Source of the DNA: Candidatus Uhrbacteria bacterium
Lineage (GTDB): Bacteria; Patescibacteriota; Patescibacteriia; UBA9934; GWF2-40-263
Reading direction: 5' to 3'
NCBI GenBank assembly: GCA_014239775.1
Contig: JAAZYG010000005.1
Coordinates: 6,746 to 70,745, forward strand
Length of the DNA: 64,000 nucleotides
Position numbers and translations under genes: made by a program. Shown here piece after piece: positions 1 to 40,517 of the stretch; positions within the stretch are counted from its first letter, which is position 1; every line of letters begins with the position of its first letter. Below the pieces are notes generated by a model that had not been told where the DNA came from, did no database searches, and saw only the letters and a program-made list of their open reading frames with translations.

Positions 1-297
1 TTTTGGGGAGGTTTTATACAACCATGGGCAGCAAATCTACTTCCAGGACCACTTGAACAAGTAATGATTTCTACTGCAATAATGGAACTTATAATTGGTG
101 TAGCCATGTTGTTTAACATATATACATGGATTGCGGCACTAATTGCATCATTACATCTTTTAGTGATATTGATTACAGTTGGAATCGACAGTATTACAGT
201 TCGTGATATTGGACTACTTGGCGCATCTGTTGCACTATTTTTATCGACTGTGCCAAAACATATAACAGACAAACTTTGTAGAAAAAATAAAAGTTAG
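1..297 (+). CDS. DoxX-like small membrane protein, 5' end truncated by window edge
   Basis: Frame 1 is open from base 1 to the TAG at 295-297 with no upstream stop. The sequence is TM-rich and has an ELIIG motif reminiscent of DoxX. Confidence 0.4.
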   Translation, partial: FWGGFIQPWAANLLPGPLEQVMISTAIMELIIGVAMLFNIYTWIAALIASLHLLVILITVGIDSITVRDIGLLGASVALFLSTVPKHITDKLCRKNKS

Positions 298-325
298 AAA
301 AAAATCGACCAATTGGTCGATTTTA
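298..325. terminator. bidirectional hairpin terminator
   Basis: A perfect palindrome atcgaccaattggtcgat (304-321) lies between convergent genes. It is flanked by an A-run on the left and TTTT on the right. Confidence 0.5.
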
Positions 326-1513
326 TAATTCTGTCAGACTTCTTCCTTGAAACAAATGTATGGTCCAAGAAAACGAAACTCTTAACTTATTAATAATACC
401 CGGTGTCTTAAATAAATATACCGTTCGCCAAACATACCAAGCAAACAATCCTTTGATATGAAAACCAAATATTTGCCCAATTCCATTTCCGTATCCTAGT
501 GAAAGCAAGAAACCAAACGTCCTTAGTTGATACGTGCCCATACTCTTCCCTTTTTCTAATAAAGATATGTTCTTAGCGACCACCTCAGCCTCTCTAACAG
601 CTGTTTGAGCTAATTTTGGTACAGGTTTACCATTTATGGAAATAATGTCTCCTAATGCAAATATATCGACATTCTCGACTGTTTGAAGATACTCATTAAC
701 CTGTACACAACCATGGTCATCTAGCTTAAGTACATTTTCATACAAACCAGTATTTGGCTTAACACCTGCACATAAGATAGTTATATCCGATCCATACTCA
801 CCTTTGTTTGTTATTACACTAGAACACGTAACTTCTTCAGCAATTGTTTCATTCAAAACCTCGATACCATATTTCTCTGTAAGGTTTTTTATATAACCCT
901 GAACCGTAGGATGATCCATGCCACCCATAATATTTCGTGCATTTATAACACGCAACTTATACTTTAACGTTGGATGTTTACTTTTTAACGAAGCAAGTAG
1001 TCTCTCTATGTCGAATATCAACTCTGAACCTGTTGCACCTGCTCCTATTACATTCACCTCTACCGTCTTATTGCATTGTGCAAATGAAACAATCTTATTT
1101 TTTATTGCAACAGCATCCTCTGCAGTTTTTAATTCAAATACATTCTCTGCACCCTTGATGTTATAAGTGTTTGTTGATGCACCAGTTGCAAGTACAAGAT
1201 AACTATAAGTAATTTCTTTATTATTTAAAATTACCTTTTTATTTTTTATATCCATATCAGTCACCTCACACCGATATAATTCAAAATCTTCATTTTTAAA
1301 AAACGTCTCATATTCAAATATTATGTCATGAGTTAAAAGTGAACCAGTTGCAACCTCATGCAATAATGGTGTGAATGTAAAATAATTTGTCTTACTAGCT
1401 AATATAACCGGATAACCAAGCTTAAGTAATGCTTTGGTTGTATAAACACCACCAAAACCACCACCTATCACAACAACTGGATCTTTTATCATATAAATAG
1501 AAGTATAAAACAA
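323..1513 (-). CDS. ndh: type II NADH dehydrogenase / FAD-dependent pyridine nucleotide-disulfide oxidoreductase
   Basis: VVVIGGGFGG dinucleotide-binding motif near the N-terminus and a second VIGAGATG motif. Size and layout are typical of Ndh-2. The likely true start is the internal MIKDP. Confidence 0.7.
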   Translation of the reverse strand: MFYTSIYMIKDPVVVIGGGFGGVYTTKALLKLGYPVILASKTNYFTFTPLLHEVATGSLLTHDIIFEYETFFKNEDFELYRCEVTDMDIKNKKVILNNKEITYSYLVLATGASTNTYNIKGAENVFELKTAEDAVAIKNKIVSFAQCNKTVEVNVIGAGATGSELIFDIERLLASLKSKHPTLKYKLRVINARNIMGGMDHPTVQGYIKNLTEKYGIEVLNETIAEEVTCSSVITNKGEYGSDITILCAGVKPNTGLYENVLKLDDHGCVQVNEYLQTVENVDIFALGDIISINGKPVPKLAQTAVREAEVVAKNISLLEKGKSMGTYQLRTFGFLLSLGYGNGIGQIFGFHIKGLFAWYVWRTVYLFKTPGIINKLRVSFSWTIHLFQGRSLTEL

Positions 1514-1541
1514 AAAAACCTCTGCAGCAAAGGCAGTGGTT
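1514..1541 (-). terminator. intrinsic terminator downstream of rpmG and the tRNA pair
   Basis: Minus-strand hairpin ccactgcc...gcagagg followed by TTTTTTT (the plus-strand A-run at 1512-1518). Confidence 0.5.
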
Positions 1542-1697
1542 TTATTTAGTTTCTTTGTGAAGCTTATGTGTCTTACAGCGTTTACAAAACTTTTTTAGCT
1601 CAAGTCTTTCTTTAAGCTTTTTCTTGTTTTTAAAACTTCTATAACCAAGCATTTTACACTCAGAACATTCAAATTTAATCAGATTATCTTGTGACAT
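1542..1697 (-). CDS. rpmG: 50S ribosomal protein L33 (51 aa, absent from the ORF track because it is under 60 aa)
   Basis: Manual minus-strand translation gives MSQDNLIKFECSECKMLGYRSFKNKKKLKERLELKKFCKRCKTHKLHKETK. It has the CxxC...CxxC zinc ribbon and the KLELKKF...H.L.KETK C-terminus typical of L33. It sits directly downstream of the tRNAs. Confidence 0.75.
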   Translation of the reverse strand: MSQDNLIKFECSECKMLGYRSFKNKKKLKERLELKKFCKRCKTHKLHKETK

Positions 1698-1745
1698 ATA
1701 TATCTATTACTGCGAAACCTTAGTAGATTTTACTAAAATTGTCAA

Positions 1746-1822
1746 TGGAGCCACCTGTGAGATTCGAACTCACGACCTACGGTTTACAAAACCGTTGCTC
1801 TGACCAGCTGAGCTAAGGTGGC
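1746..1822 (-). tRNA. tRNA-Thr (anticodon TGT)
   Basis: The reverse complement folds as a cloverleaf: GCCACCT acceptor, GCTC/GAGC D-stem, anticodon loop TTTGTAA, TTCGAAT T-loop and CCA end. Confidence 0.85.
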
Positions 1823-1847
1823 TTAATAACTTACTAAGGAGACAAAC

Positions 1848-1932
1848 TGGTGGGCCGGGAGGGATTTGAACCCCCGAAGGCGATGCCAGCAGATTTACAG
1901 TCTGCTCTCGTTGACCACTTGAGTACCGACCC
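1848..1932 (-). tRNA. tRNA-Tyr (anticodon GTA), long variable arm
   Basis: Reverse complement is GGGTCGG...CAGACTGTAAATCTG...GGTTCAAATCC...CCGGCCCACCA. The 85-nt length with a long variable arm is typical of bacterial tRNA-Tyr. Confidence 0.85.
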
Positions 1933-2012
1933 AGAAGCGAAATAATTCTACACAATATTAAAATTCAAGTCAATTACTAAATCAGTCAAGTTAATGCCAT
2001 CATTAATTTCAA

Positions 2013-3470
2013 TTAATGCACAATTTCCCAGTGTTTTTTCTTTGCGATACTAAGTAAATTACGGGAATGAGGCTTGACCACAATCGGATGACCAACAACC
2101 TTAAATATTGGTAAATCAGAATATGCATCTGCATAAGCATAACTGTCTTTTAAATTAAGACCGTGTTTTTTTGCATATGACTTAGCCTGTTTACTTTTTT
2201 CACTTCCATAAACAAGTTTCTTTATTTTTCCTGTATATACTCCATTTTTTATCTCCAACTTTGTAGCTATCAAACCTTTAGCACCAATCAAATCCTTAAA
2301 ATGCTTTGCAAGTGGTTCTATAACTTGACTCAAAGAAACAACATGATGCCCTGCCTTATGATGATCTTTAATATATGCAAGTAAGTCATGATCAAATTTA
2401 TCTGTCTCAACAATCTTAAAAAACTCATGAGCTAATATATCCAACTTTTCCTTATTCCACCCAGCTATACATTTAGCAGACTGTGCAGATAAATCTTGCA
2501 TTGAAATAATTTTTAAATTATACAAAAATAACGCAAAATAAACCCTCCAAATACTTAATCGTGATAAAAATCCTTCTTTTTGTAACCAATGAAAAAAATC
2601 ATGCATGCAATACCCTTTGTATATAGTATGATCTATATCAAAAAATACACCTACATCCTTACGTTTTTTCTCAGATAAAAAATCTCTATGATACCTATGG
2701 GGCAACTGCTTCATCATTTGATCACGAACGTCCTTTGTAAAGTCAACAACTGCTTTTCTAAATGGATACGCACGTGTAACTTTTGGTGGCATCATTGGCT
2801 TTCCAAAGATGACTTTAATTTTTCCAGGACACATCCTTGTACGATCAACAACCTTCTCCTCTCCAATAAATGTCATTGGGACTATTGAACGCTTTGAACG
2901 TAAAGAAACACGTGCAGCGCCTGTATGTAAATAGTGGAACTTGTGCGAATGCTCAACATGACCTTCACCAAAAATTAAAACATTCCTACCCTCTTTTAAT
3001 GAATTCATCATCTTCTTAATAGCAGCTTTTTTTGTGTGTGCTTTTTTAAAATGTTTCTCATCATAACCATCACGCAATACATCAATAGCACCGGCTTTAA
3101 AACAAAAAATATTAAAAGGATATTTAAACATTCCACGAGGACCAACCAAACAATCTACATTTGGACCCAAAAGGCCAAAACAAAAAAAACCATCTAACAC
3201 AGACCCGTGATTAGATACATATATAAACGGACCTTCTATATTCCCTGTATTATCTTCTACATCAAATTCAATGCCAGATAACTTTTTTAACAAGGCCGAA
3301 TTTATCATTGACGCTTTACGCCACAACCCATCTCTTTTATTCTTTGGAATAAGCTTTTCTACCACTAAAAACACAGGTGCTTCTACACAACCTATTATAT
3401 AAAATAATAATTGTACTGATATTCCGTAAACAGTTTTTAATTTTAATTTATCCCCCAATAATGTTGCCAT
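2013..3470 (-). CDS. fusion protein: PlsC-type acyltransferase (N-terminal) plus HAD-IB phosphatase-like domain (C-terminal)
   Basis: NHGSVLDG is the H(x)4D acyltransferase motif and FGEGHVEH is the second acyltransferase block. VFFDIDHTIY is the HAD DxDxT motif, and the C-terminus has a conserved K...D pattern. Confidence 0.6.
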   Translation of the reverse strand: MATLLGDKLKLKTVYGISVQLLFYIIGCVEAPVFLVVEKLIPKNKRDGLWRKASMINSALLKKLSGIEFDVEDNTGNIEGPFIYVSNHGSVLDGFFCFGLLGPNVDCLVGPRGMFKYPFNIFCFKAGAIDVLRDGYDEKHFKKAHTKKAAIKKMMNSLKEGRNVLIFGEGHVEHSHKFHYLHTGAARVSLRSKRSIVPMTFIGEEKVVDRTRMCPGKIKVIFGKPMMPPKVTRAYPFRKAVVDFTKDVRDQMMKQLPHRYHRDFLSEKKRKDVGVFFDIDHTIYKGYCMHDFFHWLQKEGFLSRLSIWRVYFALFLYNLKIISMQDLSAQSAKCIAGWNKEKLDILAHEFFKIVETDKFDHDLLAYIKDHHKAGHHVVSLSQVIEPLAKHFKDLIGAKGLIATKLEIKNGVYTGKIKKLVYGSEKSKQAKSYAKKHGLNLKDSYAYADAYSDLPIFKVVGHPIVVKPHSRNLLSIAKKKHWEIVH

Positions 3471-3560
3471 ATTGACAATAACGATTTATAAGGCTATTTT
3501 ATCATGAATATAGGAGGATAACTAAGTTCTTTAACAATTAAATATACTTAAACCACTTTT

Positions 3561-5405
3561 TTGGGGAAAACCATGACTCTTGAACCGAGGTCATTGTCGC
3601 CAGTTAGAACCTGGGCAAGCATTAACGCGCCTCGCAACATATTACTTCTACTTGTTGGGTGCGAGCATTTAGGTGTACCTAAAAAGGTCATCTTCAATAG
3701 TTTACCTGATAGACTAAAAGGTAAATCGATATCATTAATGAGAAAAGATGAAGATCAAATTACTCTTGCAGAGTATGATGATGTTCTAAGACCTTTAATA
3801 GATCACTTAGGTCACGTGAGTCTACTGAGCGAAATTGGTCATGCATCACCAAAGATTGACTTTGGTTTTGAAACCGTCAAACGTATCGCAGGCACACTTC
3901 CTGGACTCGGTCATTTTGTTAGTCCATGGGTTGCATACAAACAACTCAATGAAGCTGCAAGAGCTTGGAATAATAACAAAATCTGGAAGGCTGATTTAAT
4001 AGATCACAACATGGTTAGGCTTATGTGTACATATAATCCTGCTAGTCCAACCGGACAAACCATCGATCGAATTAAAGACGCAGTTTCACTTTTGTATTTA
4101 ATCAGAGGGATGAATGAAGCTCTTCCAGGAATTTTTCCAGGAAGATACTTGTTGTCTGAAGTTAATTACAGACTAGTCAATCTACCACTAGAACAACTAC
4201 TGCGGACATTGTGTCCAAAAAGTAATATTGAATTTAGTGGAAATGTCTTATACTTCAACAATGAACTCGTTGCAACAAAGGTTTGGCTAAAACCAGACCA
4301 CAGAGGATGGTTCATGGGTGACTACTCACGAACTGAGATTGATGGTGTAATGACAACACCAGCAATCTTAATCTTAAAAGATGTGTGTACACAAGCGACA
4401 GGAAATGTATGTCCTGGTCAAATATTGCCACTAGTTCGTCTAGGTGAAATTTATCAAATCAACGAAGATGTGAGTCAATTTTCACACACAATACTGGACA
4501 TTCGGTGGAACACAACTTGGGCAGATAAAGTAAAAAGTTATCTACCGTTCGTTGGTGGTCATAAAAACTTCCAAAATGAGTTCATTACTGAAAACAGGGC
4601 GGTTGCAGCAACTCAACAAGTTTCGCTTGAAAAACGTAAGACTCAAATTTATACAGCACTTATTTCAGCGATTTATCCTGATAAATCAATGTTTCAATCT
4701 GTTCTTGAAGGTAAAAATCTTACAGTAATAGATGACACTACAGTGTCTTTGTTTGTTGACATTGCAAACTTCTCAAAATGGGCAAACTCCTGTGGAGCCA
4801 ATGAAGTATACAATTTTATGCAGCCCTTTATGACTGGTGTGAATAAAATTGCCTTACGTTGTCATGGTAAGCTGTGTAATTTTACCGGTGATGGATGTGC
4901 AATTAATTGGTTTGGTAAAATAGGACCCAGCAAACAATATTCAGTAAAACGAAGATTGCAATTTGCCATAGATGCATCTCTCTACATTTTGAAACTTGCA
5001 GATAATGCTGGATGTTCTGTACGTGTAGGAATTTCTGTTGGTCAAACAATCACATACACTATTCCTGTAGACAAAAGTGGTATTCAAGCAATGCCTGTCA
5101 CAAATGGAGTAGCAATGAATATGGCCGCAAGAGTGCAGGCTGCAATGAAACCAACACAACAAAAAATGAAATGTTCTGTTGCAGCAATGGATGATAGTGC
5201 AGAAAAAGTTCTTACAGCTGATGGAATCTTAAATATTGCACCATTAAACATAAGGATCATTGGTGTAGTCGAAGAAAAGTCTGATACATTTAGTTTATTC
5301 CAAATCATGCCAACAACAATGACTGAAAAGGACCAAAACTGGATCACACGGACTGGCGCAGACACGTCTATGAATATGCCCACAATCAACTCAAATGAGG
5401 ATTAA
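3561..5405 (+). CDS. class III nucleotidyl cyclase (adenylate/guanylate-cyclase-type catalytic domain) with a roughly 385-aa N-terminal domain of unknown function
   Basis: The C-terminal domain has the metal-binding Asp in VDIANFS and in FTGDG, plus VRVGISVGQ...TNGVAMNMAARV, which is the N/R transition-state motif. The true start is probably the ATG at 3573 (MTLEPRS), since 3561 is a TTG. The 5' part of the gene is clearly more G+C-rich than its neighbours. Confidence 0.7.
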   Translation: MGKTMTLEPRSLSPVRTWASINAPRNILLLLVGCEHLGVPKKVIFNSLPDRLKGKSISLMRKDEDQITLAEYDDVLRPLIDHLGHVSLLSEIGHASPKIDFGFETVKRIAGTLPGLGHFVSPWVAYKQLNEAARAWNNNKIWKADLIDHNMVRLMCTYNPASPTGQTIDRIKDAVSLLYLIRGMNEALPGIFPGRYLLSEVNYRLVNLPLEQLLRTLCPKSNIEFSGNVLYFNNELVATKVWLKPDHRGWFMGDYSRTEIDGVMTTPAILILKDVCTQATGNVCPGQILPLVRLGEIYQINEDVSQFSHTILDIRWNTTWADKVKSYLPFVGGHKNFQNEFITENRAVAATQQVSLEKRKTQIYTALISAIYPDKSMFQSVLEGKNLTVIDDTTVSLFVDIANFSKWANSCGANEVYNFMQPFMTGVNKIALRCHGKLCNFTGDGCAINWFGKIGPSKQYSVKRRLQFAIDASLYILKLADNAGCSVRVGISVGQTITYTIPVDKSGIQAMPVTNGVAMNMAARVQAAMKPTQQKMKCSVAAMDDSAEKVLTADGILNIAPLNIRIIGVVEEKSDTFSLFQIMPTTMTEKDQNWITRTGADTSMNMPTINSNED

Positions 5406-5417
5406 TAAAGCATTACT

Positions 5418-5446
5418 AACACCTGTTTATACAGGTGTTTTTTTAT
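5418..5446 (+). terminator. intrinsic terminator after the cyclase gene
   Basis: aacacctgt-ttat-acaggtgtt hairpin followed by TTTTTTT. Confidence 0.6.
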
Positions 5447-5477
5447 TAAGAAAACATAAACACACAACTTATATCTG

Positions 5478-5506
5478 TTGACAACCAGCATGTTTATATA
5501 TAAACT
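5478..5506 (+). promoter_or_regulatory. possible sigma70-like promoter for the 108-aa ORF
   Basis: TTGACA, then 17 nt, then TAAACT. The -10 is weak. Confidence 0.3.
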
Positions 5507-5560
5507 CTCAAGTCAACTTTGACAATCTGTTTTAAATAAAGTTTTTACAAGGAACAGTAA

Positions 5561-5887
5561 GTGATTTTTTCTGAAGTTTTTTATGTTGATTATGACCGAT
5601 CTGTTAAATTCAACCCAACCTTGCACAGTCAATTTGTAAAAAAATTTCTTGCATGGTCAAACCTTATAATTGTCGGTCCGCAGTATGAGCACAAACATCT
5701 GTACAATCACTTCTGTACAGATCATACAGCCCCACCAACATCACAGCTTATAGCTGCTGGTGATTGTACGGGCGATGGACATGTGTGGAGTTGGACAAGT
5801 GTTGGCTTTGGTTTTAAAACACCAAAAGACATCAAACCTCACATACTCAAGGCAATTCAAATGAAGGATGAAGCTTTAGGCTTCTAA
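5561..5887 (+). CDS. hypothetical protein (GTG start), His/Cys/Trp-containing orphan
   Basis: ORF of 108 aa downstream of the cyclase, with a weak AAGGAA SD. I recognise no motif. Confidence 0.35.
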   Translation: MIFSEVFYVDYDRSVKFNPTLHSQFVKKFLAWSNLIIVGPQYEHKHLYNHFCTDHTAPPTSQLIAAGDCTGDGHVWSWTSVGFGFKTPKDIKPHILKAIQMKDEALGF

Positions 5888-5981
5888 CACTAAAGCTATG
5901 CTTTACTAAACATACAAACTTTTTGTGTGTTTTTTTATTTACACAATCAAAAAAACTACTAATACGTAGTTTTTAAGTAAA

Positions 5982-6057
5982 TGGAGCCGTCACGCGGATT
6001 CGAACCGCGGACCTCATCCTTACCATGGATGCGCTCTACCTACTGAGCTATGACGGC
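5982..6057 (-). tRNA. tRNA-Thr (anticodon GGT)
   Basis: Reverse complement is GCCGTCATAGCTCAGTAGGTAGAGC...anticodon loop ATGGTAA...GGTTCGAATCC...TGACGGCTCCA. Confidence 0.85.
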
Positions 6058-6067
6058 AATAATAATA

Positions 6068-6877
6068 TTATTCCTCACTTGTTTTTTGAATATATTCATC
6101 CTTTAATTTATAAAACCTACCCTCAAACTCATCAAGTTTTTTATTTTCTGGATTGACCTCCTGCAACAAGGTGATTCCTTTTCTAGCATCTTTTAATGAA
6201 CCAGCTCTAAGAGAAGTTTCAATATAAAAATCTAAATATTTTGGATTTTTAGACCTATTATCGATTGCCTTTTTTAGATAATCTAATGCAGATTTGTAAT
6301 TTAAAGAATCCATCTCCATCTCTGCAAGAGACACCAAAACACTAGCATCATTTGGTGAAATTTTTAATGTAAATTTATAAGTCTCTTTTGCCTGGTCATA
6401 TTTAGAACTCTTTTTATAAAGATCACCCAATCCTTCATATGCATCAACACTTTTTGGATTATGACTAATAATATCTATATAGATTTTTTCTGCATGTACA
6501 ACCTCATCTTTTTTGACTAAATCCTTAGCTTGATCAATTAATCGTCTTATTTCATCTTTATTGTAAGAGTGAACACCTTCTTCAGCTGTACGTTTTAATT
6601 TCTGATAATATTGCTCTAAAGAATATAATTTTTGTACAGCACGTCTACCGTATTTAGACGCAACACGAACAGCTCCAGAAGATGCTTTTACTACATTTCT
6701 AGCAACACCGCTCTTACGTTGTAATTTTTGTAATATAATCTTCTCTTTTACTTTTCGCGCCTTTTCTTTTGGTACTGATTCAATGTTAATAACACGTAAT
6801 TTTGGGATATTACGAACCAAAATAATAGAAATTGTAAACAAACAGAAAATAATTATAGAAACTAATATCCAAACCAT
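6068..6877 (-). CDS. TPR-repeat protein with an N-terminal transmembrane anchor
   Basis: Hydrophobic N-terminus, then repeated A..Y..LG..Y / A...Y...L helical-hairpin patterns characteristic of tetratricopeptide repeats. Confidence 0.55.
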   Translation of the reverse strand: MVWILVSIIIFCLFTISIILVRNIPKLRVINIESVPKEKARKVKEKIILQKLQRKSGVARNVVKASSGAVRVASKYGRRAVQKLYSLEQYYQKLKRTAEEGVHSYNKDEIRRLIDQAKDLVKKDEVVHAEKIYIDIISHNPKSVDAYEGLGDLYKKSSKYDQAKETYKFTLKISPNDASVLVSLAEMEMDSLNYKSALDYLKKAIDNRSKNPKYLDFYIETSLRAGSLKDARKGITLLQEVNPENKKLDEFEGRFYKLKDEYIQKTSEE

Positions 6878-6880
6878 ACT

Positions 6881-7654
6881 TTACTCTTGTGCTTCAAGGA
6901 CTTCACTTGCAGCCTCAATCACATCCTTGAATTGATTAATTTTAACACTTGCACCACCAACCAAAACTCCATCAATACTTTTCTCTCTTAATAAAGCATA
7001 TGCATTATCACCATTTACACTACCTCCATACAAAACATTTAATTGATCTTCCTTTATACCAGGAAAGATATCTGACAAAACAGTTTTAATAAACTCATGC
7101 ACCTCTATAACCTGTGCAACATCTGCATTTTTACCAGTACCGATTGCCCAAATGGGTTCATATGCTATAAACAATTTAGCTGAAGATCGTAATCTAATCC
7201 CACCTAATGCACTGGCTATTTGATTTTTTATAATCTCCAAATAACCACCCTCCTCTCTATGTTCAACACTCTCACCAATACACACTATTGGGGTTAAATT
7301 ATTCTCTAAAGCCTTTTTTAATTTCCTATTAACAATTTCATCCGTTTCAGAAAACAAACCCCTTCTTTCTGAATGCCCAATTAATACATGTGTTACACCG
7401 ACCTCATCTAACATTCTTGAAGAAATCTCACCAGTAAATGCACCCTTATCTTCCCATGACATGTTTTGTGCACATAAAGAAACAGATGACCTTGCGATCA
7501 CTTTTCTAACTTCCGACAAAGCAATAAATGAAGGACAAATGATTAAATTAGGAACAACTTTCCTACCCCTCAATGTCAAAAGCGTACCACGAGCCAACGC
7601 AATACTTTCTCTAACTCCCACATTCATCTTCCAATTTCCTATAACTGTTTTCAT
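6881..7654 (-). CDS. tpiA: triosephosphate isomerase
   Basis: NWKMN near the N-terminus, the active-site His in LIGHSERR, and the IAYEPIWAIGTGK motif. Confidence 0.85.
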   Translation of the reverse strand: MKTVIGNWKMNVGVRESIALARGTLLTLRGRKVVPNLIICPSFIALSEVRKVIARSSVSLCAQNMSWEDKGAFTGEISSRMLDEVGVTHVLIGHSERRGLFSETDEIVNRKLKKALENNLTPIVCIGESVEHREEGGYLEIIKNQIASALGGIRLRSSAKLFIAYEPIWAIGTGKNADVAQVIEVHEFIKTVLSDIFPGIKEDQLNVLYGGSVNGDNAYALLREKSIDGVLVGGASVKINQFKDVIEAASEVLEAQE

Positions 7655-8919
7655 ATTTTTGCCTTCCTTATGAACTCCTCCTTAGACTTATAAGGACCTA
7701 TAACAGCAACTGTCATTTGATCTAAATCAAGAATTTCTTTTGCCACATCTTGAATTTCTTCCAAAGTTACTCCATCTATTTTTTTCAAATATGCAGCTGG
7801 TGTTTTAACATCATCTTTAAACAGTGCTTGTGTTGCATACCACGAAGCACGTTGATACGTATCTTCAAGCTGTATTGAAAACTGTCCTTGTATATATGTT
7901 TTCGCATCTACCAATTCTTGCTTTGTAACACCCTTTTTTATAATAGATTTTACCTCTTTTAAAATAGTCTTAACAGCAAGTGGTAACCGCTTTTTGTCCA
8001 AACCAGCCCTAATCATAAAAGTACCAATATCATCATATTGATGACTGTATGCACGTACAAAATATGCTAAGCCCAGTCTTTCTCGTACCTCAATAAAAAG
8101 CCGTGAACTCATGTTGCCACCTAATATCACAGAAAGCAAGGATACAATATGATTCTTTTTTGAATCAATACCATATGTATAAAATCCTAATGCTAATTGA
8201 ATTTGTTCTGTTTTTTTGTATTCAACACAAATTCTTGGTGATTTTTTTGGTTTTGTGATCTTAAACTCTTCAAAATCTTTATCTGACTTTCCTTTTCGAA
8301 CAACTGAAAATTTATTTTCAACCCAAACCTTAGCTTTTTTATTAATATTTCCAGAAACAACAACAACCATATTTGAAGCGCTATAATGCTTCTTATAATA
8401 TTCTAAAATTTCATCTCTTGGCATTTCTTTCATTGTCTTTGGTGTACCTGCTATATTTCGTCCCAACGTATTACCTTTATACATCTCGTCTTCAACAATA
8501 TCCTCAACATGACGCATAGGATTATCCCTATACATGTTAATTTCCTCAATCACCACACCACGCTCACGATCCAATTCTGTTTTATCAAAAACAGAATTAA
8601 ACAACATATCACTTAGAATATCTAAAGCTAATTTTAGGTGAGTCTTGCTAACTTTTACGTAATAACCTGTAACATGCTTATCTGTAAATGCATTAAAATC
8701 AGCACCAATTGAATCTAATTCTCTAGTAATGTCCTGAGTTGTTGGGCGACGTTTTGTGCCTTTAAACAATAAGTGCTCAATAAAATGTGACGCACCGTTT
8801 AGTTTTTTATATTCATACCTTGAACCAACTCCAACCAAAATCATGACCGTTACCGTGTCTGTGCCTTTTGAAGGAGCAAATAAAACTGGTAATGAATTTT
8901 TTAATGTAAATTTTTGCAT
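7651..8919 (-). CDS. M16 family zinc peptidase (pitrilysin/insulinase-like)
   Basis: HFIEHLLFKGT is the inverted HxxEH zinc-binding motif. Length and layout fit M16. Confidence 0.75.
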   Translation of the reverse strand: MQKFTLKNSLPVLFAPSKGTDTVTVMILVGVGSRYEYKKLNGASHFIEHLLFKGTKRRPTTQDITRELDSIGADFNAFTDKHVTGYYVKVSKTHLKLALDILSDMLFNSVFDKTELDRERGVVIEEINMYRDNPMRHVEDIVEDEMYKGNTLGRNIAGTPKTMKEMPRDEILEYYKKHYSASNMVVVVSGNINKKAKVWVENKFSVVRKGKSDKDFEEFKITKPKKSPRICVEYKKTEQIQLALGFYTYGIDSKKNHIVSLLSVILGGNMSSRLFIEVRERLGLAYFVRAYSHQYDDIGTFMIRAGLDKKRLPLAVKTILKEVKSIIKKGVTKQELVDAKTYIQGQFSIQLEDTYQRASWYATQALFKDDVKTPAAYLKKIDGVTLEEIQDVAKEILDLDQMTVAVIGPYKSKEEFIRKAKI

Positions 8920-8929
8920 CTTGATAAAA

Positions 8930-10318
8930 TTAAATATTTAATATCGAACCAAACCAATCTTGTAAATCAGTTATCTTAACTCTATTTTGTTTCATGGTAT
9001 CTCTGTCTCTAATGGTTACAGATTTATCATCCAACGTATCAAAATCAACAGTTATACAATAAGGTGTGCCGATCTCATCCTGTCGTCTATACCTCTTTCC
9101 TATAGACTGAGTTTCATCATAATCAACAACCCACTTTTCAGAAACCAAATCTAAGACCTCTTTACTAACACTCTGTAATTCTGGTTTTTTTGACAATGGC
9201 AAAACCGCAATATGAAATGGTGCTATGTGGTTTGGAAACCTCATTAAAACACGCACTTCTCCATTAACTTCCTCCTCATCATAACAACTCAACATCACTG
9301 CAAGCAAGGTTCTATCAACCCCCATTGATGGCTCTATAACATGAGGTACTATCTTTCGTGTGTTGTCATTTGGGTCAGTATAAACCAACTGCTGTCCTGA
9401 ATGTTTTGTGTGATTTTTTAAATCAAAATCGGTCCTATAAGCCAACCCCCAAAGTTCCTTACATCCAAATGGAAAATCAAATTCAAAATCAATTGTTTTA
9501 TTAGAATAATGAGCCAACTTATCTTTTGGAATATCCTTAGCATGAAATCGATCCATATCAATCCCTATACTTTTTGCCCACTCACTCATCCAATCACTCC
9601 AATCCTTAAAATGTTTTTCCCATTCATCTGATTCTACAAAATATTCAATCTCCATCTGTTCAAACTCCAAGGTCCTGAAAATAAAATTTCCAGGTGTAAT
9701 CTCATTACGAAATGCTTTACCGATTTGTGCAATTCCAAACGGAATACGTTTACGAGATGAATCTAGAACCTGCTTAAAATTCACAAATATTGCTTGAGCT
9801 GTTTCAGGTCGTAAATATACACTTGATTTTTCACCTTCTGTAATACCAATACCTGTCTCAAACATTAAATTAAAAGTCTTGACCTTTGTTAGATCATTTC
9901 CATCTGGACTCTTTATTTTATTATCTGTAATTAGCTTATTCAATTCCTTAATACTCATTCCATCCGCATTAACACCTTCAACATTCTCCTCAATTAAATG
10001 ATCGGCACGATACCTTTTATGTGTAACCTTATCTTCAACCAAAGGATCATTAAAAGAATCTACATGCCCTGATGCAACCCATATTTTTGGATTCATTAAA
10101 ATAGAGCCATCTAATCCAACCATGTCCTGACGAGACTCTACTACCCTATGCCACCAATCAGATTTTATATTTTTCCTTAATTGTGCACCAAGAGGACCAT
10201 AATCCCAAGAATTCGCGAGTCCACCATAAATTTCTGAACCAGCAAAGACAAACCCTCGCTTCTTAGCGAGGTTTGATATTTTTTCAATTGTAACAATATT
10301 TTTCATAGCACTACACAA
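8930..10318 (-). CDS. glyQS: glycine--tRNA ligase (class II, dimeric GlyRS type)
   Basis: The N-terminus KRGFVFAGSEIYGGLANSWDYGPLG and the class II motifs match GlyRS. The likely true start is the internal MKNIV. Confidence 0.85.
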   Translation of the reverse strand: MCSAMKNIVTIEKISNLAKKRGFVFAGSEIYGGLANSWDYGPLGAQLRKNIKSDWWHRVVESRQDMVGLDGSILMNPKIWVASGHVDSFNDPLVEDKVTHKRYRADHLIEENVEGVNADGMSIKELNKLITDNKIKSPDGNDLTKVKTFNLMFETGIGITEGEKSSVYLRPETAQAIFVNFKQVLDSSRKRIPFGIAQIGKAFRNEITPGNFIFRTLEFEQMEIEYFVESDEWEKHFKDWSDWMSEWAKSIGIDMDRFHAKDIPKDKLAHYSNKTIDFEFDFPFGCKELWGLAYRTDFDLKNHTKHSGQQLVYTDPNDNTRKIVPHVIEPSMGVDRTLLAVMLSCYDEEEVNGEVRVLMRFPNHIAPFHIAVLPLSKKPELQSVSKEVLDLVSEKWVVDYDETQSIGKRYRRQDEIGTPYCITVDFDTLDDKSVTIRDRDTMKQNRVKITDLQDWFGSILNI

Positions 10319-13845: not shown

Positions 13846-15123
13846 GTGCAAATAAGCACAACACCATCTCAGAAAAGGAGAATTTTAATGCTGCAAAACA
13901 TTTTTGAACCCCCCACCCTCATGGGAATGCAATTTTGTATTCCTGAAAACGACTCGCGTCCGGGCCTGCCGGGCAAGATCGAGGTTCTAGGTCGCAAGGC
14001 CCAGAAGTACTTCACAGGAAAGATAAACTTCCAAGAAAGCCATTTCAACAAAGGTGTTGCCGTCAGTCTGTGCATTCAGGCTGGTCAGGACTGGACCAAG
14101 TTGGGAAGCATTTCTGCGCTGAAAAAGCGTGGTAATGAGCTCCGGCTGATCTCTGAAGCCAGCGTGATTGCTGCTTCTACTGGTCTTCCGGTTGAATGGC
14201 TCGTTAAAGGAACTGAGTCTGTCGAAGGACTGCGAATGATCAAAAAGGCGGTTGAACTCGCTCGAAAGGTCAATCGTAATCACATGTTCTGGAGCAGTGT
14301 AATGACTCCCAGTCAAGTGATTGACCAGGAAATGAACGTCCTTTTGGCTCTGGAAGATGCCCTTATCACCGCACTCAAGACTAACCCCAAGAGTGATGAT
14401 GAGAAGGAAGATCTCAAGCAGAGTACAACGACTGTTGATCTGCGTGACATGGATATGGAGGCTTTCATCGAAGGTCTAGTTCCTGTACCTTCAGAACTTC
14501 CGAAGTTGCCTAGTACCAGGTCTGAATCCGACACCAAAGTCAAGGCAAAAACCTGTACTGACAACAATTGTGTGATCGTGAAGCGGATTGAACTGCATGA
14601 ACCTGGAACCTTGGTGGTTATTAATAACGAACTTCGTTATGTTTGCTGCGGCAAGCATGGCAAATGCCGTTCTTTGATGACACCTGAGGTCGCAAGAGTG
14701 ACTGCAGATGAAAGTAGGCTTCGACGTCAGTACCGGATCCCTGCTTGGAAGCAGATTGTGACTGAAGACTTTCAGTCTGATCGCCACACGGTCTACTGTC
14801 CGAGTTGTTCAAAATTCATCCTCAAGGATGGGTCAAAGACACTCGCACAATGGATCACTTCTGCTGAAGAGACTGAGAGAGATCTTTCTCGAAATGGTAG
14901 GCAAATCGCACGTAGCTTGGGATACAACAATCCCTTGAACAACGACGCCTACCTTGAGCTGGCATTGGCAGAGCCAGGACTGCGTGCTAACGGAATCGTT
15001 GGCCCCAATAAGACCCGAAAAGGTCCAATGGGAATTCGCGCAGCCTTGGCAATCTCCAAGACCAACCCGAATCGTCGTAACGGCAAAAACCGTAGCAACA
15101 ATCGGAATGCTCAACGCTCCTAA
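13846..15123 (+). CDS. hypothetical Cys-rich protein with a zinc-ribbon-like C-terminal half and a basic Arg/Asn-rich tail, in a compositionally foreign ORF (probable start 13888, 411 aa)
   Basis: Long ORF whose G+C is visibly far above the flanks (about half by eye, against roughly 30%). An AAGGAG SD sits 7 nt before the ATG at 13888. Cys pairs CTDNNC, CCGKHGKC and CPSC are present, and the C-terminal tail is KTNPNRRNGKNRSNNRNAQRS. It lacks the Lys/Asn/Ile bias of the host proteins. Confidence 0.5.
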   Translation: MQISTTPSQKRRILMLQNIFEPPTLMGMQFCIPENDSRPGLPGKIEVLGRKAQKYFTGKINFQESHFNKGVAVSLCIQAGQDWTKLGSISALKKRGNELRLISEASVIAASTGLPVEWLVKGTESVEGLRMIKKAVELARKVNRNHMFWSSVMTPSQVIDQEMNVLLALEDALITALKTNPKSDDEKEDLKQSTTTVDLRDMDMEAFIEGLVPVPSELPKLPSTRSESDTKVKAKTCTDNNCVIVKRIELHEPGTLVVINNELRYVCCGKHGKCRSLMTPEVARVTADESRLRRQYRIPAWKQIVTEDFQSDRHTVYCPSCSKFILKDGSKTLAQWITSAEETERDLSRNGRQIARSLGYNNPLNNDAYLELALAEPGLRANGIVGPNKTRKGPMGIRAALAISKTNPNRRNGKNRSNNRNAQRS

Positions 15124-15830: not shown

Positions 15831-16607
15831 TTACTCAAATTTTTGTTTCTTATAATTTTCAGCACCTCTCCATGCTAATTCAAACAAAGCTTTTACAGTA
15901 TCTGCAATTTCCTTACTGGTAATGACCACTGACAAAATAGCTGATTTATATGAAAATAAAAATATATGATTATCTCTCACAACAATACTTCCATGAATCG
16001 GAAACTCACTTGCAGGTATAATTCGTATCTCCCCTTTTCCCATGTGAGGTAATGATACATCTGATTCATCTTCAACAATTGCAAGAACCCTGTGTTCAGT
16101 ATCGCTAGTTCTTAAAGTTGCATGGTGAGCATCTCTGTCGTGCATTACTTCAATTGTATTTTGAACATCCTCAAAAGGAAATATTTCAAAAAATTCACCA
16201 TCTAATTTTTCAAACATTGAACGAACTGTCTTAATCCCTTCAATTCCTTCAAGATATCTGATTTGCGGCTTTGTACCTTCTGCATTAAAAAGAGCCATTA
16301 ACATTGGTAATGTTTTATCTAACTCTGCTCTTTTTTCTGCTATCGCCCTATTTTGAGTATCTAAAATTGCACCAAGTCTTTCTGGAGACTCAGCTGCATA
16401 AAAACGCTTCTTACCTTTTACAAAAGTTGACATAAGACCACGTCCTGACAAAGATTCTATCATGACGTAAGTAGTTGCTCTGTTTACTTTTGATTTATGT
16501 GATATGTCTTGAACAGGTGAAGGACCCAACTCTAAAGCCGCCAGGTACACTGACGCCTCTTTATCAGAGAGTCCTAAATGTTTTAATTCATTGATTAGCT
16601 CATCCAT
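15831..16607 (-). CDS. TrmB-family transcriptional regulator
   Basis: The N-terminal wHTH LGLSDKEASVYLAALELGPSPVQDIS is typical of TrmB, followed by a C-terminal effector domain. Confidence 0.65.
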   Translation of the reverse strand: MDELINELKHLGLSDKEASVYLAALELGPSPVQDISHKSKVNRATTYVMIESLSGRGLMSTFVKGKKRFYAAESPERLGAILDTQNRAIAEKRAELDKTLPMLMALFNAEGTKPQIRYLEGIEGIKTVRSMFEKLDGEFFEIFPFEDVQNTIEVMHDRDAHHATLRTSDTEHRVLAIVEDESDVSLPHMGKGEIRIIPASEFPIHGSIVVRDNHIFLFSYKSAILSVVITSKEIADTVKALFELAWRGAENYKKQKFE

Positions 16608-29285: not shown

Positions 29286-29500
29286 AGTATTTTGTATATT
29301 TATCGACCTTTAAATAAAAAACTGCCGATTACATACCGCAGTGTTCTAAGAAAACTTTTCAGAATCTCATTTACCTCGACAGGACTTATTTCATTAATGA
29401 AAACCTGTTGTCTACGGCGGATATGTTCATTACTAATAGCAATGTAGCATCTCCAATCTTTAGTTCAAAAAGAGTATATATAAAACATATATGATTGTCA

Positions 29501-39902: not shown

Positions 39903-40517
39903 ATGCCTTATCTAACAAAGAAACAGACAGAGATACTTCGATACATAAAATCTCATCTGCAAGACAATGGATACGCTCCTTCCTACAGAGAAATCGGTGA
40001 GTATTTTGGTCTTTCTTCCCCAGCCACAATACACTCACACATTCAAACACTTGTTGAAAAAGGAGAAATTCAAATAGGTGAAGAAGGAGAGGCTAGATCA
40101 ATAGAATTGGTTCAATCAGAGCCATTTGCAATGGCTGTAATGCTTCCAATGGCAGGGCTTATTACCGCTGGAACACCAATAGAAGCTGTTGAACAAAATG
40201 AAGCGATGGCTGTACCTGCACAATTTGTAGTAGATGGAGCAAATTCCTATGTCCTACAAGTAAAAGGCAGGTCCATGATTGAAGATGGGATATTAGATGG
40301 AGATTTTGTTGTAATAGAAAGAAACCCATCTCCAAAAAATGGAGAAGTTGTTGTGGCATTATTAGATAATGCATACGCAACACTCAAACGATTCTACAGA
40401 GAAAAAAACCAAATTAGATTACAACCAGCAAATAGCTCAATGGATCCAATCTATGTACAAGATTGCATAATACAAGGAGTTGTACGTGCTGTAATAAGAA
40501 AATTTCAACCTGTGTAG
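39903..40517 (+). CDS. lexA: LexA repressor (S24 peptidase)
   Basis: N-terminal wHTH LTKKQTEILRYI...GYAPSYREIG. The Ser nucleophile is in VKGRSMIEDGI and the Lys is in ATLKRFY. Confidence 0.85.
   Translation: MPYLTKKQTEILRYIKSHLQDNGYAPSYREIGEYFGLSSPATIHSHIQTLVEKGEIQIGEEGEARSIELVQSEPFAMAVMLPMAGLITAGTPIEAVEQNEAMAVPAQFVVDGANSYVLQVKGRSMIEDGILDGDFVVIERNPSPKNGEVVVALLDNAYATLKRFYREKNQIRLQPANSSMDPIYVQDCIIQGVVRAVIRKFQPV

Follow-up and report, generated by a model that had tools for sequence, protein, structure and literature searches.

A putative sensor-cyclase of Parcubacteria-group bacteria with a modelled H-NOX-like domain and a conserved acyltransferase-HAD neighbour

The locus and its features

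The window, the whole 64-kb stretch of DNA analysed here, carries a gene for a class III nucleotidyl cyclase with a large N-terminal domain, referred to below as the sensor-cyclase. An acyltransferase-HAD gene (the partner) lies on one side of it, and a 108-aa ORF (orf108) and a tRNA gene on the other. The features are, in window coordinates:

2013..3470, minus strand: partner acyltransferase-HAD gene, divergent from the cyclase gene
3471..3560: divergent intergenic region of 90 bp, common to the cyclase and partner genes
3472-3500, plus strand: promoter-like site TTGACA-17-TATTTT in the 90-bp divergent region
3561..5405, plus strand: sensor-cyclase gene, 614 aa from the TTG at 3561; the public call, P0001, starts at the ATG at 3573 and has 610 aa
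3618..4211, plus strand: predicted H-NOX-like ligand-binding subdomain, about aa 20-217, with limits taken from secondary-structure order and not from residue-level superposition
4227..4541, plus strand: beta-rich subdomain, about aa 223-327, with conserved G238, P290, G295 and W316
4560..4715, plus strand: long signalling helix (aa 334-371) and CTE-like handle (about aa 366-385, conserved P373), the sensor-to-catalytic connector
4722..5306, plus strand: class III nucleotidyl cyclase catalytic domain, aa 388-582
4758-4760, 4890-4892, 5118-5120 and 5130-5132, plus strand: in the catalytic domain, the metal aspartates D400 and D444, Asn520 and Arg524, respectively
4878-4880 and 5097-5099, plus strand: N440 and V513, the non-canonical base-specifying pair of the catalytic domain
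5418..5449, plus strand: intrinsic-terminator-like hairpin and T-run directly 3' of the cyclase stop; 9-bp stem with 4 G-C pairs, the hairpin itself at 5418-5439
5478-5506: promoter-like site between the cyclase terminator and the 108-aa ORF
5561..5887, plus strand: 108-aa ORF (orf108), in a variable slot between the cyclase gene and tRNA-Thr(GGT)
5982..6057, minus strand: tRNA-Thr(GGT), its 3' end facing the cyclase block

A preliminary description of this DNA had placed a terminator after the cyclase gene, followed by a 108-aa ORF with its own promoter, and had the whole block abut the 3' end of tRNA-Thr(GGT); each of these features is present as listed. The intergenic regions of the locus, including the 90-bp divergent one, contained no operator-like palindrome and no riboswitch or other Rfam match.

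The 108-aa ORF is absent from all homologous loci, matches no family and has a single homologue, 94% identical and located on short contigs, from which it differs by nine synonymous and six non-synonymous changes (pN/pS 0.18, binomial p = 0.001). It is probably a real, species-restricted gene that stands outside the conserved module. In relatives, the same slot holds a gene for a membrane protein of 426 or 441 aa. We considered the possibility that orf108 is a remnant of that gene and rejected it, as tblastn found nothing.

Descent of the cyclase gene and its conserved neighbour

The sensor-cyclase family is rare: 51 of 1.84 billion cluster representatives belong to it. The domain was N-terminal in 51 of 51 matches to the N-domain profile, nearly all of these proteins being 550-740 aa long, and Guanylate_cyc was the only recurring C-terminal domain in the 52 aligned sequences (the window protein and 51 database proteins). 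The three named members come from Ca. Uhrbacteria, Kerfeldbacteria and Magasanikbacteria, all of the Parcubacteria group.

The gene belongs to a synteny block conserved in L002, L003-6, L007 and L009, in the order NDH-2, tRNA-Thr-Tyr, acyltransferase-HAD, cyclase, variable slot, tRNA-Thr(GGT), TPR, TIM, M16, GlyRS and RRF. Among the relatives that keep this order, with a genomic GC of 0.45-0.52, cyclase identity is as low as 37-41%; at the loci just named, the cyclase is 39-41% and the flanking genes are 35-71% identical to those of the window. The cyclase is present in all relatives examined, and only the slot of about 570 bp that contains orf108 varies. The position of tRNA-Thr(GGT) beside the TPR gene is kept in L003, L007 and L009, while in L002 the tRNA has moved to the Thr/Tyr tRNA cluster. 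This tRNA is part of the conserved block itself and does not mark the boundary of an island. Since block order and tRNA are conserved at 37-41% cyclase identity, horizontal acquisition beside the tRNA, as proposed in the preliminary description, is unsupported: the fusion is vertically conserved within a syntenic block, which is the finding that the description itself had named as speaking against its proposal.

That description had also called the gene, and especially its 5' half, clearly richer in G+C than its surroundings. The composition is indeed elevated, with the first 60 codons alone standing out (GC3 0.40), but the excess is modest: the GC content of the cyclase gene is 0.383, as compared with a mean of 0.344 (SD 0.038) for 56 ORFs of the window (z = +1.03, rank 5 of 56), and its GC3 is 0.286, as compared with 0.231 in the window (rank 5). 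The ORF whose composition truly departs from the rest of the window is another one, at 13846..15123, with a GC content of 0.484.

In most other lineages, the cyclase orthologues are strong, gene-bounded GC3 outliers. Taken alone, this looks like repeated transfer. The case against such transfer consists of synteny, co-divergence and the persistence of the GC3 trait across 65%-identical orthologues. Two other causes of the high GC3 were considered and rejected. An overlapping antisense gene does not explain it, as the long antisense ORF of L009, a by-product to be expected where A-ending codons are rare, is missing in the AT-rich copy of the window. Nor does strand, as the L013 cyclase remains an outlier although it runs in the same direction as its neighbours.

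The partner gene encodes a membrane-anchored LPLAT/PlsC-type acyltransferase (HX4D motif HGSVLD, aa 88) joined to a HAD-IB phosphatase (DxDxT motif DIDHT, aa 278), with a TM-like segment at aa 19-37. It matches Pfam PF01553 and PF12710 as well as TIGR01490 (125 bits, above the cut-off). In a census of nine lineages, an acyltransferase(-HAD) gene was adjacent to the cyclase gene, or at most four genes away, in all nine, and all other flanks of the pair differed between these lineages; in L019, for instance, the pair sits between secY and adk. The two genes are co-directional in L013, and two cNMP_binding genes stand between them in L015. The pair has thus stayed together while both flanks were rearranged at least six times independently, its relative orientation changed and cNMP-binding genes were inserted between the two. 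The partner proteins are orthologous (33-47% identity), their catalytic motifs are intact, and the pairwise identity matrices of cyclase and partner are congruent (Mantel r = 0.84, p = 0.0008). A word-indexed search for acyltransferase-HAD homologues gave three matches and missed known 47%-identical orthologues, so that it is no measure of the breadth of this family. Because of this conserved partner the cyclase is not an orphan; the preliminary description, which had offered an orphan signalling enzyme as its fallback, came nearer the mark with the signalling enzyme than with the orphan.

We considered the possibility that the cyclase is a general second-messenger enzyme with a ligand unrelated to lipids, its adjacency to the partner gene reflecting inherited order or shared promoter use with no mechanistic link. 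In line with this, the partner has no recognisable cNMP-binding domain, its composition resembles that of the genomic backbone whereas that of the cyclase does not, and the sample comprises nine lineages only. Yet inherited order alone would have to survive the rearrangements, reorientation and insertion listed above, and the two proteins co-diverge. Inherited gene order, and not functional coupling, could explain part of the adjacency, and an account entirely devoid of such coupling appears rather unlikely to us.

Sensor domain, catalytic domain and the defence question

The N-terminal region of about 385 aa matched no Pfam, NCBIfam or PDB sequence and contains no TM segment (maximum KD19 1.53), in agreement with its earlier description as a candidate novel sensor devoid of TM segments and of known motifs. 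The N-domain profile, run against PDB sequences, hit only a spurious, repeated adiponectin. Structure prediction was more informative. A model built from a 46-sequence alignment had a pLDDT of 91 and a pTM of 0.88, and when it was compared with the PDB by Foldseek, H-NOX chains came first, with a probability of up to 0.97. Two methods placed H-NOX domains, among them the one of human sGC beta1, at the top of the structural neighbours, and the modelled N-terminal subdomain has the H-NOX fold. The beta-rich subdomain (about aa 223-327) had no convincing structural neighbour. Proteins of the H-NOX/V4R/Bet3 fold group take up small ligands, mostly hydrophobic ones, in an internal cavity (PMC10933270).

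These findings raise the possibility that the protein is a bacterial analogue of sGC, the H-NOX-like domain of which would bind heme and sense a gas (NO, O2 or CO) or redox state. The order of domains (H-NOX-like, middle, long helix, class III cyclase) parallels that of sGC, and His85 is found in 45 of 46 sequences. Yet columns 85 and 88, the only His-rich ones, lie at an earlier helix junction, and there is no His-rich column in aa 100-140, hence no conserved His at the topological equivalent of the proximal helix, as placed from the order of secondary-structure elements. The N-terminal domain also lacks the YxSxR propionate-binding motif, six close members gave no Pfam HNOB match at E<=1, and hhalign of the N-domain profile with Tt H-NOX and sGC beta1 (sequences checked against the published H102/P115/Y131/S133/R135 numbering) was not significant (probability 0.2%). 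The residues conserved family-wide in this subdomain include N26, G84, H85, G93, P122, N139, K140, D173, S176 and G183; they are mostly polar (N26, N139, K140, D173, S176), unlike those of a heme pocket. Furthermore, VirS, V4R and Bet3, which share the fold but sense without heme, score nearly as high as H-NOX. A heme-based sensor therefore seems very unlikely. As modelled, the subdomain would resemble H-NOX structurally only, and the sensor domain is an undescribed one, fused solely to class III cyclases and confined so far to Parcubacteria-group CPR.

The catalytic domain retains the hallmark residues that had been noted previously. The metal-binding D400 lies in VDIANFS, the second metal ligand, D444, in NFTGDG, and the transition-state residues N520/R524 in GVAMNMAARV; all four align with the catalytic residues of OaPAC, and the beta-alpha-beta-beta-alpha-beta core of the class III fold is present. 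A profile of six close homologues matched OaPAC, CyaB and Rv1264-type enzymes among the solved cyclases (E = 5e-8), and the match to OaPAC includes the helical handle that precedes the cyclase domain. Across the family, both metal aspartates are kept in all 49-50 members with a catalytic domain and Arg524 in 43 of 49. Pfam Guanylate_cyc was matched by 34 of the 52 aligned sequences at E<=0.01 (best score 62.6 bits). The window protein itself scored 18.2 bits, below the gathering cut-off of 21.9, in the PF00211 superfamily test, and should, judging from its sequence, be regarded as a divergent member of the class III cyclases rather than as a non-member.

In class III cyclases, the canonical purine-specifying pairs are Lys with Asp or Thr for ATP, and Glu with Cys for GTP. 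Family-wide, Lys occupies the first of these positions in 33 of 49 sequences and Asp or Glu the second in 34 of 49, so that most members, with this adenylate-cyclase pair, should make cAMP. In the clade of the window protein, the canonical pair is absent and replaced by N440/V513 in all six sequences, which makes the product of this clade uncertain. As the N/V pair is invariant across 37-65% identity, it indicates selection on a defined pocket. Together with the sub-threshold Pfam score, the replacement leaves room for altered or reduced activity.

The catalytic domain of this clade might accordingly have drifted to a nucleotide-binding pseudo-enzyme or to a different reaction, a reading in keeping with the loss of both base-specifying residues, with the low Pfam scores within the clade (22.9 bits for P0003 and no match for P0006, besides the window protein) and with the Thr that replaces the catalytic Asn in P0004. 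It is at odds with the invariance, within the clade, of both metal aspartates and Arg524 (Asn520 being kept in five of six), with the constancy of the N/V pair, and with the modelled domain (pLDDT 80-92), the fold of which resembles that of active cyclases. We consider it highly improbable.

The preliminary description had likened the locus, as a cyclase acquired next to a tRNA, to Pycsar/CBASS-like anti-phage signalling. Spelled out, this would be a tRNA-integrated module in which phage sensing triggers formation of a cyclic (pyrimidine) nucleotide and abortive infection. The best library match of the window protein is indeed PADLOC PycC (E = 7.8e-8), Asn440 and Val513 replace the purine-specifying Lys and its partner, the gene adjoins a tRNA 3' end and a slot that varies between lineages, and the orthologues are GC3 outliers. 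However, the PycC match is generic, because family members with canonical adenylate-cyclase K/D residues score better on the same model (44-49 bits, and 46-63 bits on Pfam Guanylate_cyc), and by fold, ordinary adenylate cyclases come ahead of the solved PycCs, none of which was retrieved by sequence profile. The pyrimidine-selecting residues are F100/R142/Q144 in EaPycC and Y50/D94/R97 in BcPycC (PMC11224242). Their counterparts in the window protein, F398 (which varies in the clade), N440 and T442, fit neither pattern and give no indication of specificity.

The surroundings do not point to defence either. No integrase-like ORF was found within 1..10000, no att-like direct repeat of the tRNA 3' end (5982-6057), and no phage match by tblastn or PHROG match; PADLOC likewise matched nothing in the conserved partner. 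The cyclase is flanked by the acyltransferase-HAD gene on one side and by orf108 and the tRNA on the other, and none of these is a cNMP-binding effector fused to TIR or TM. In agreement with the preliminary description, which saw no cNMP-binding effector in the window, a phmmer search of low sensitivity with the two CNB proteins of L015 and E. coli CRP found no cNMP-binding protein in the 64 kb; in related genomes, linked cNMP_binding genes were seen in one lineage, L015. In view of this housekeeping context and of the conserved position at 37-41% identity, the locus is not Pycsar-like, and the defence-island hypothesis, largely refuted and extremely improbable, can be dropped.

Proposed function and comparison with known systems

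The architecture shown by the model consists of a predicted H-NOX-like small-molecule-binding fold, a beta-rich subdomain, a long helix with a CTE-like handle and an intact class III catalytic domain. We propose that the gene is, with fair probability, a vertically inherited, lineage-specific signalling gene encoding a soluble, ligand-regulated class III nucleotidyl cyclase of Parcubacteria-group CPR. By analogy with sGC, BLUF-cyclases such as OaPAC and class IIIa/b adenylate cyclases, it would act as a head-to-tail homodimer, and occupancy of the sensor by its ligand would change how the two helices are tilted or in which register they pair.

The gene neighbourhood suggests that the cyclase may cooperate with the membrane acyltransferase-HAD phosphatase encoded divergently at 2013..3470, in which case the sensor would most likely read a lipid or phospho-metabolite connected with this enzyme. 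The cNMP would report to cNMP-binding proteins encoded elsewhere, such as those found between cyclase and partner in L015. CPR bacteria are thought to depend on host lipids. A more specific version, which we offer tentatively and consider unlikely in all its parts together, is that the family is a lipid- or phospho-metabolite-gated switch of CPR bacteria: the heme-free H-NOX-fold sensor would read the substrate or product of the acyltransferase-HAD enzyme, the messenger of the window clade would be neither cAMP nor cGMP, and the high GC3 would reflect selection on expression of the regulator.

The undescribed sensor domain, with its confident H-NOX-like model, is now defined, and a modest follow-up appears worthwhile. 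A bacterial protein with the module order of sGC, devoid of heme ligands, is relevant to the question of how cyclases acquired sensors of the H-NOX/V4R fold. The pairing with a lipid acyltransferase-phosphatase connects cyclic-nucleotide signalling, in a testable way, with the handling of membrane lipids in organisms whose physiology is largely unknown and which are not yet cultured alone, and the clade-specific swap of both base-specifying residues poses a simple biochemical question on product identity.

Among known systems, soluble guanylate cyclase shares with the present family the succession of an N-terminal H-NOX-type fold, a middle domain, a long signalling helix and a class III catalytic domain. 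Unlike sGC, the family has neither a heme-ligating His nor YxSxR and no detectable sequence-level homology to H-NOX; its middle domain is beta-rich and not identified as PAS, and the protein is presumably a homodimer, whereas sGC is an alpha/beta heterodimer. In place of the E/C pair of guanylate cyclases, most of the family has K with D/E, and the window clade N/V.

The N-terminal domain of VirS (M. tuberculosis), the V4R phenol sensors DmpR/PoxR and TRAPP Bet3 with palmitate belong to the same, non-heme H-NOX/V4R/Bet3 fold group. Some remote family members have conserved Cys/His at positions 22, 34, 88 and 279 that are reminiscent of the V4R zinc site, but this Cys set is absent from the window clade. 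VirS, V4R and Bet3 proteins are joined to DNA-binding or AAA+ outputs or occur on their own, whereas here the output is a cyclase.

As compared with the Pycsar PycCs, the class III fold is common to both, and the PADLOC PycC models match weakly. Like EaPycC, which has R142 at this place, the window protein has a residue other than Lys four positions before the second metal Asp; this is Asn instead of the Arg of EaPycC, and the pattern also differs from Y50/D94/R97 of BcPycC (PMC11224242). Furthermore, the cyclase here has neither a cNMP-binding effector beside it nor the context of a defence island, it is inherited vertically, as indicated by synteny and co-divergence with neighbours, and it carries a large sensor domain at its N-terminus.

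The best profile match is with the soluble class III sensor-adenylate cyclases of bacteria, such as the BLUF-cyclases OaPAC/bPAC, P. aeruginosa CyaB and Spirulina CyaC, and the catalytic residues are the same. In contrast to these enzymes, the window clade lacks the adenine-specifying Lys and its Asp/Thr partner, and instead of BLUF, MASE or GAF, its sensor would be an undescribed H-NOX-like module.

The cyclase gene, its surroundings and its descent

Features around the sensor-cyclase gene (positions in the window)
2013..3470, minus strand: acyltransferase-HAD gene (LPLAT/PlsC-type acyltransferase fused to a HAD-IB phosphatase), the partner
3561..5405, plus strand: sensor-cyclase gene, a real ORF
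5418-5439: terminator (hairpin and T-run) 3' of the cyclase stop codon
5478-5506: promoter-like site between the terminator and orf108
5561..5887: orf108 (108 aa)
5982..6057, minus strand: tRNA-Thr(GGT), 3' end toward the cyclase/orf108 block

The public call of the cyclase, P0001, is 100% identical to the window ORF and starts at the ATG at 3573, giving 610 aa. The class III signature residues claimed in the preliminary description are present, namely D400 (VDIANFS), D444 (NFTGDG), and N520 and R524 (GVAMNMAARV), and no TM segment was found in the cyclase protein, as had been said of its N-terminal part. The gene's own terminator, the 108-aa ORF with a separate weak promoter, and the contact of the block with the 3' end of tRNA-Thr(GGT) had also been described and were all recovered. 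That description was largely correct as an observation, but not in its interpretation of the locus as a defence island.

The island was proposed to have been acquired horizontally beside the tRNA. We found that the window and its relatives (loci L002, L003, L007 and L009 among them) share one gene order: NDH-2, tRNA-Thr(TGT) and tRNA-Tyr, acyltransferase-HAD (minus strand), cyclase (plus strand), a variable slot, tRNA-Thr(GGT), TPR, TIM, peptidase M16, GlyRS, RRF, a BNR protein and holB; in L002, tRNA-Thr(GGT) has moved to the tRNA-Thr/Tyr cluster. These relatives differ in genomic GC (0.45-0.52, versus 0.34 in the window), and identity to the window is 35-71% for the flanking proteins and 39-41% for the cyclase. 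No integrase was found among the window ORFs near the cyclase, the end of tRNA-Thr(GGT) is not repeated, and the locus had no phage or PHROG match. Gene order kept at such divergence, together with these negative results, argues against a tRNA-side island. A word-indexed search of 5.8 billion proteins matched only six, all of them full-length homologues (39-44% identity), indicating joint conservation of the N-terminal domain and the cyclase. The sole match among GTDB species representatives was a Candidatus Uhrbacteria MAG. We read the locus as a sensor-cyclase that has descended vertically and belongs to a rare family restricted to CPR bacteria.

Within the shared block, only the slot that separates the cyclase from tRNA-Thr(GGT) varies. 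It contains orf108 in the window and a 426/441-aa polytopic membrane protein in three relatives (L002:11961-13241, L003:11960-13285 and L009:9889-11214; L002 versus L003, 44% identity), and is empty in L007. The membrane protein had no match in Pfam or NCBIfam, and no remnant of it was found in the window. Apart from a 94%-identical copy, present on two short contigs of other samples, orf108 has no homologue. Of the codons that differ between the copies, 9 do so synonymously and 6 non-synonymously (pN/pS 0.18, binomial p=0.001 versus neutrality), and orf108 is probably a real, species-restricted gene, unrelated to the conserved module. It is bracketed by an imperfect 20-nt direct repeat (5435-5454 and 5927-5946; GTGTTTTTTTATT..., 85% identical). 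Because both copies are the T-tails of terminator-like sites, this repeat may be due to chance rather than being an insertion scar.

Base composition

The cyclase had been described as clearly richer in G+C than its flanks. The elevation is measurable (GC 0.383 versus a mean of 0.344, SD 0.038, z=+1.03; GC3 0.286 versus 0.231), yet the gene is no outlier, ranking fifth for both values among the 56 long ORFs of the window. The true compositional outlier is the ORF at 13846..15123 (GC 0.484, GC3 0.50). This plus-strand ORF encodes 425 aa with a Cys-rich C-terminal half, had no match in Pfam, NCBIfam or PHROG, and sits between holB and a 258-aa gene (15831-16607), flanked by about 900 bp and 700 bp devoid of long ORFs. 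Elsewhere in the window, genes for a LexA repressor (39903-40517) and a DinB/IMS-family translesion polymerase (41066-42271) stand close together in a low-G+C region, both on the plus (minority) strand. Apart from the tRNAs, Rfam matched the window only at a ribosomal protein L10 leader (29306-29435, minus strand; RF00557, 48.3 bits).

Faint in the window, the G+C elevation is strong in cyclase orthologues elsewhere.

GC3 of cyclase orthologues at the loci of relatives
L002: cyclase 0.77, neighbours ~0.47
L003: cyclase 0.85, neighbours ~0.52
L007: cyclase 0.56, neighbours ~0.30
L010: cyclase 0.79, neighbours ~0.55
L011: cyclase 0.82, neighbours ~0.41
L013: cyclase 0.57, neighbours ~0.23
L019: cyclase 0.69, neighbours ~0.32

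The shift is even along the whole gene, with sharp limits at its ends, and the acyltransferase-HAD partner is never enriched alongside. At L015 the cyclase has an ordinary GC3 and the three adjoining small genes, including both cNMP-binding genes, reach 0.59-0.86; the loci and genomes of the relatives contain further high-GC3 genes. We considered the possibility that the high GC3 is the relic of a single ancient transfer. This is unlikely, since the L002 and L003 orthologues are both GC3-rich though only 65% identical, and since the GC3-rich orthologues, which keep their conserved position, diverge in step with the partner, a gene richer in AT. The enrichment may stem from persistent selection, from biased gene conversion or from repeated replacement in place.

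A predicted H-NOX-like sensor domain and the catalytic residues

An exhaustive search of 1.84 billion cluster representatives with a profile of aa 1-345 yielded 51 proteins at E<=1e-3. The domain is N-terminal in all 51, and nearly all of these proteins are 550-740 aa long. Pfam Guanylate_cyc matched 34 of the 52 aligned sequences (the window protein and the 51 database proteins), among which no other C-terminal domain recurred. The named members belong to Ca. Kerfeldbacteria and Ca. Magasanikbacteria, which, like Uhrbacteria, rank at NCBI as candidate phyla within the Parcubacteria group.

An AF2 model built from a 46-sequence alignment was confident (pLDDT 91, pTM 0.88), and H-NOX chains occupied ranks 1-18 in an independent Foldseek search (probability up to 0.97, target-normalised TM about 0.5). 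The N-terminal 385 aa had been put forward as a candidate novel sensor domain, and the model supports this, predicting that the family has a new, H-NOX-like one. From the order of secondary-structure elements, the H-NOX-like part would span about aa 20-217. It is followed by a beta-rich subdomain (aa ~223-327), for which no convincing structural neighbour was found. Proteins of H-NOX-like fold are a recognised structural group whose internal cavities take up small ligands; TRAPPC3, for example, binds palmitate and PoxR binds phenols (PMC10933270).

Despite the likeness of fold, heme binding in the manner of H-NOX is unlikely. Unlike H-NOX, the domain lacks both the YxSxR motif and, in the 46 sequences, a conserved His in the stretch before the sheet; its only conserved His residues, H85 (45/46) and position 88 (25/46), are both at an early helix junction. 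Furthermore, Pfam HNOB matched none of the six close members, and profile-sequence comparison with H-NOX was not significant. The best-conserved residues are polar (N26, H85, N139, K140, D173 and S176), which would suit a pocket that accommodates a polar or anionic ligand head group. Of note, many remote members in the family alignment have Cys at 22, 34 and 279 and His at 88 (window-protein numbering), reminiscent of the V4R/TRAPPC3 zinc site; the window clade, comprising six close sequences, does not (N22, L88, A279).

Upstream of the catalytic domain, a long helix (aa 334-371) precedes a segment with a conserved P373. Profile alignment places this segment on the handle of OaPAC, and we take it to resemble the cyclase-transducer element known from guanylate cyclases and from class IIIa/b cyclases. 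If it works as in these enzymes, the protein would form a homodimer, in which a ligand bound in the sensor would shift the position of the paired helices and thereby tune the two active sites at the interface.

The base-specifying positions lie 4 residues before the second metal Asp and 11 before the catalytic Arg. The first is Lys in 33 of 49 family members and the second Asp/Glu in 34 of 49, which together read as the adenylate-cyclase pair. All six sequences of the window clade have Asn440 and Val513, a change of the base-specifying residues that is specific to this clade; a few other members have Asn/His. In EaPycC, which forms cCMP, Arg142 is at the equivalent of the first position (PMC11224242). 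The residues of the window protein fit neither of the described PycC pyrimidine patterns.

The acyltransferase-HAD partner and comparison with Pycsar

An acyltransferase(-HAD) gene is adjacent to the cyclase or <=4 genes away in every lineage inspected; the other flanks vary.

Arrangement of the cyclase and acyltransferase-HAD genes
Window clade: divergent pair
L010: divergent pair; flanks DUF4383 and radical-SAM
L011/L012 (Kerfeldbacteria): divergent pair; flanks PHO4 and DUF378
L013/L014: co-directional, cyclase first
L015/L016: cyclase, cNMP_binding protein, 157-aa ORF, second cNMP_binding protein, acyltransferase-HAD
L017, L018: partial acyltransferase genes, cut by contig ends
L019 (Magasanikbacteria; L019:6360-9851): pair inserted into the ribosomal-protein operon, with secY on one side and adk on the other

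The partners are orthologues of one another (33-47% identity, full length). They retain the HX4D and DxDxT motifs and have an N-terminal TM-like segment as well as a HAD-IB domain that passes the TIGR01490 cut-off. Their pairwise identity matrix is congruent with that of the cyclases (Mantel r=0.84, p=0.0008). Congruence of this kind usually marks functionally coupled genes, and the two are probably coupled here, perhaps through a lipid or phospho-metabolite that the sensor would read.

In the two loci where cNMP_binding genes separate a remote cyclase homologue from its partner (L015:7802-9887 and L016:6043-8128), the two stand-alone proteins are of 200 and 199 aa (27 and 29 bits). Both are candidate messenger receptors, and the L015 arrangement implies that the module of at least one lineage includes genes for cNMP receptors.

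A Pycsar system consists, by definition, of a PycC cyclase and an adjacent cNMP-binding TIR or TM effector (PMC11224242). The preliminary description likened the window locus to Pycsar/CBASS, but no such effector adjoins the cyclase or was found in the 64-kb window. The window protein did match the PADLOC PycC model (E=7.8e-8). This match is generic, since members of the family that have the canonical adenylate-cyclase residues obtain higher scores with this model (44-49 bits); these members also reach 46-63 bits on Pfam Guanylate_cyc. We do not regard the locus as Pycsar-like; it combines a new sensor domain, H-NOX-like as modelled, with a conserved lipid-enzyme partner and a clade-specific change of the base-specifying residues.
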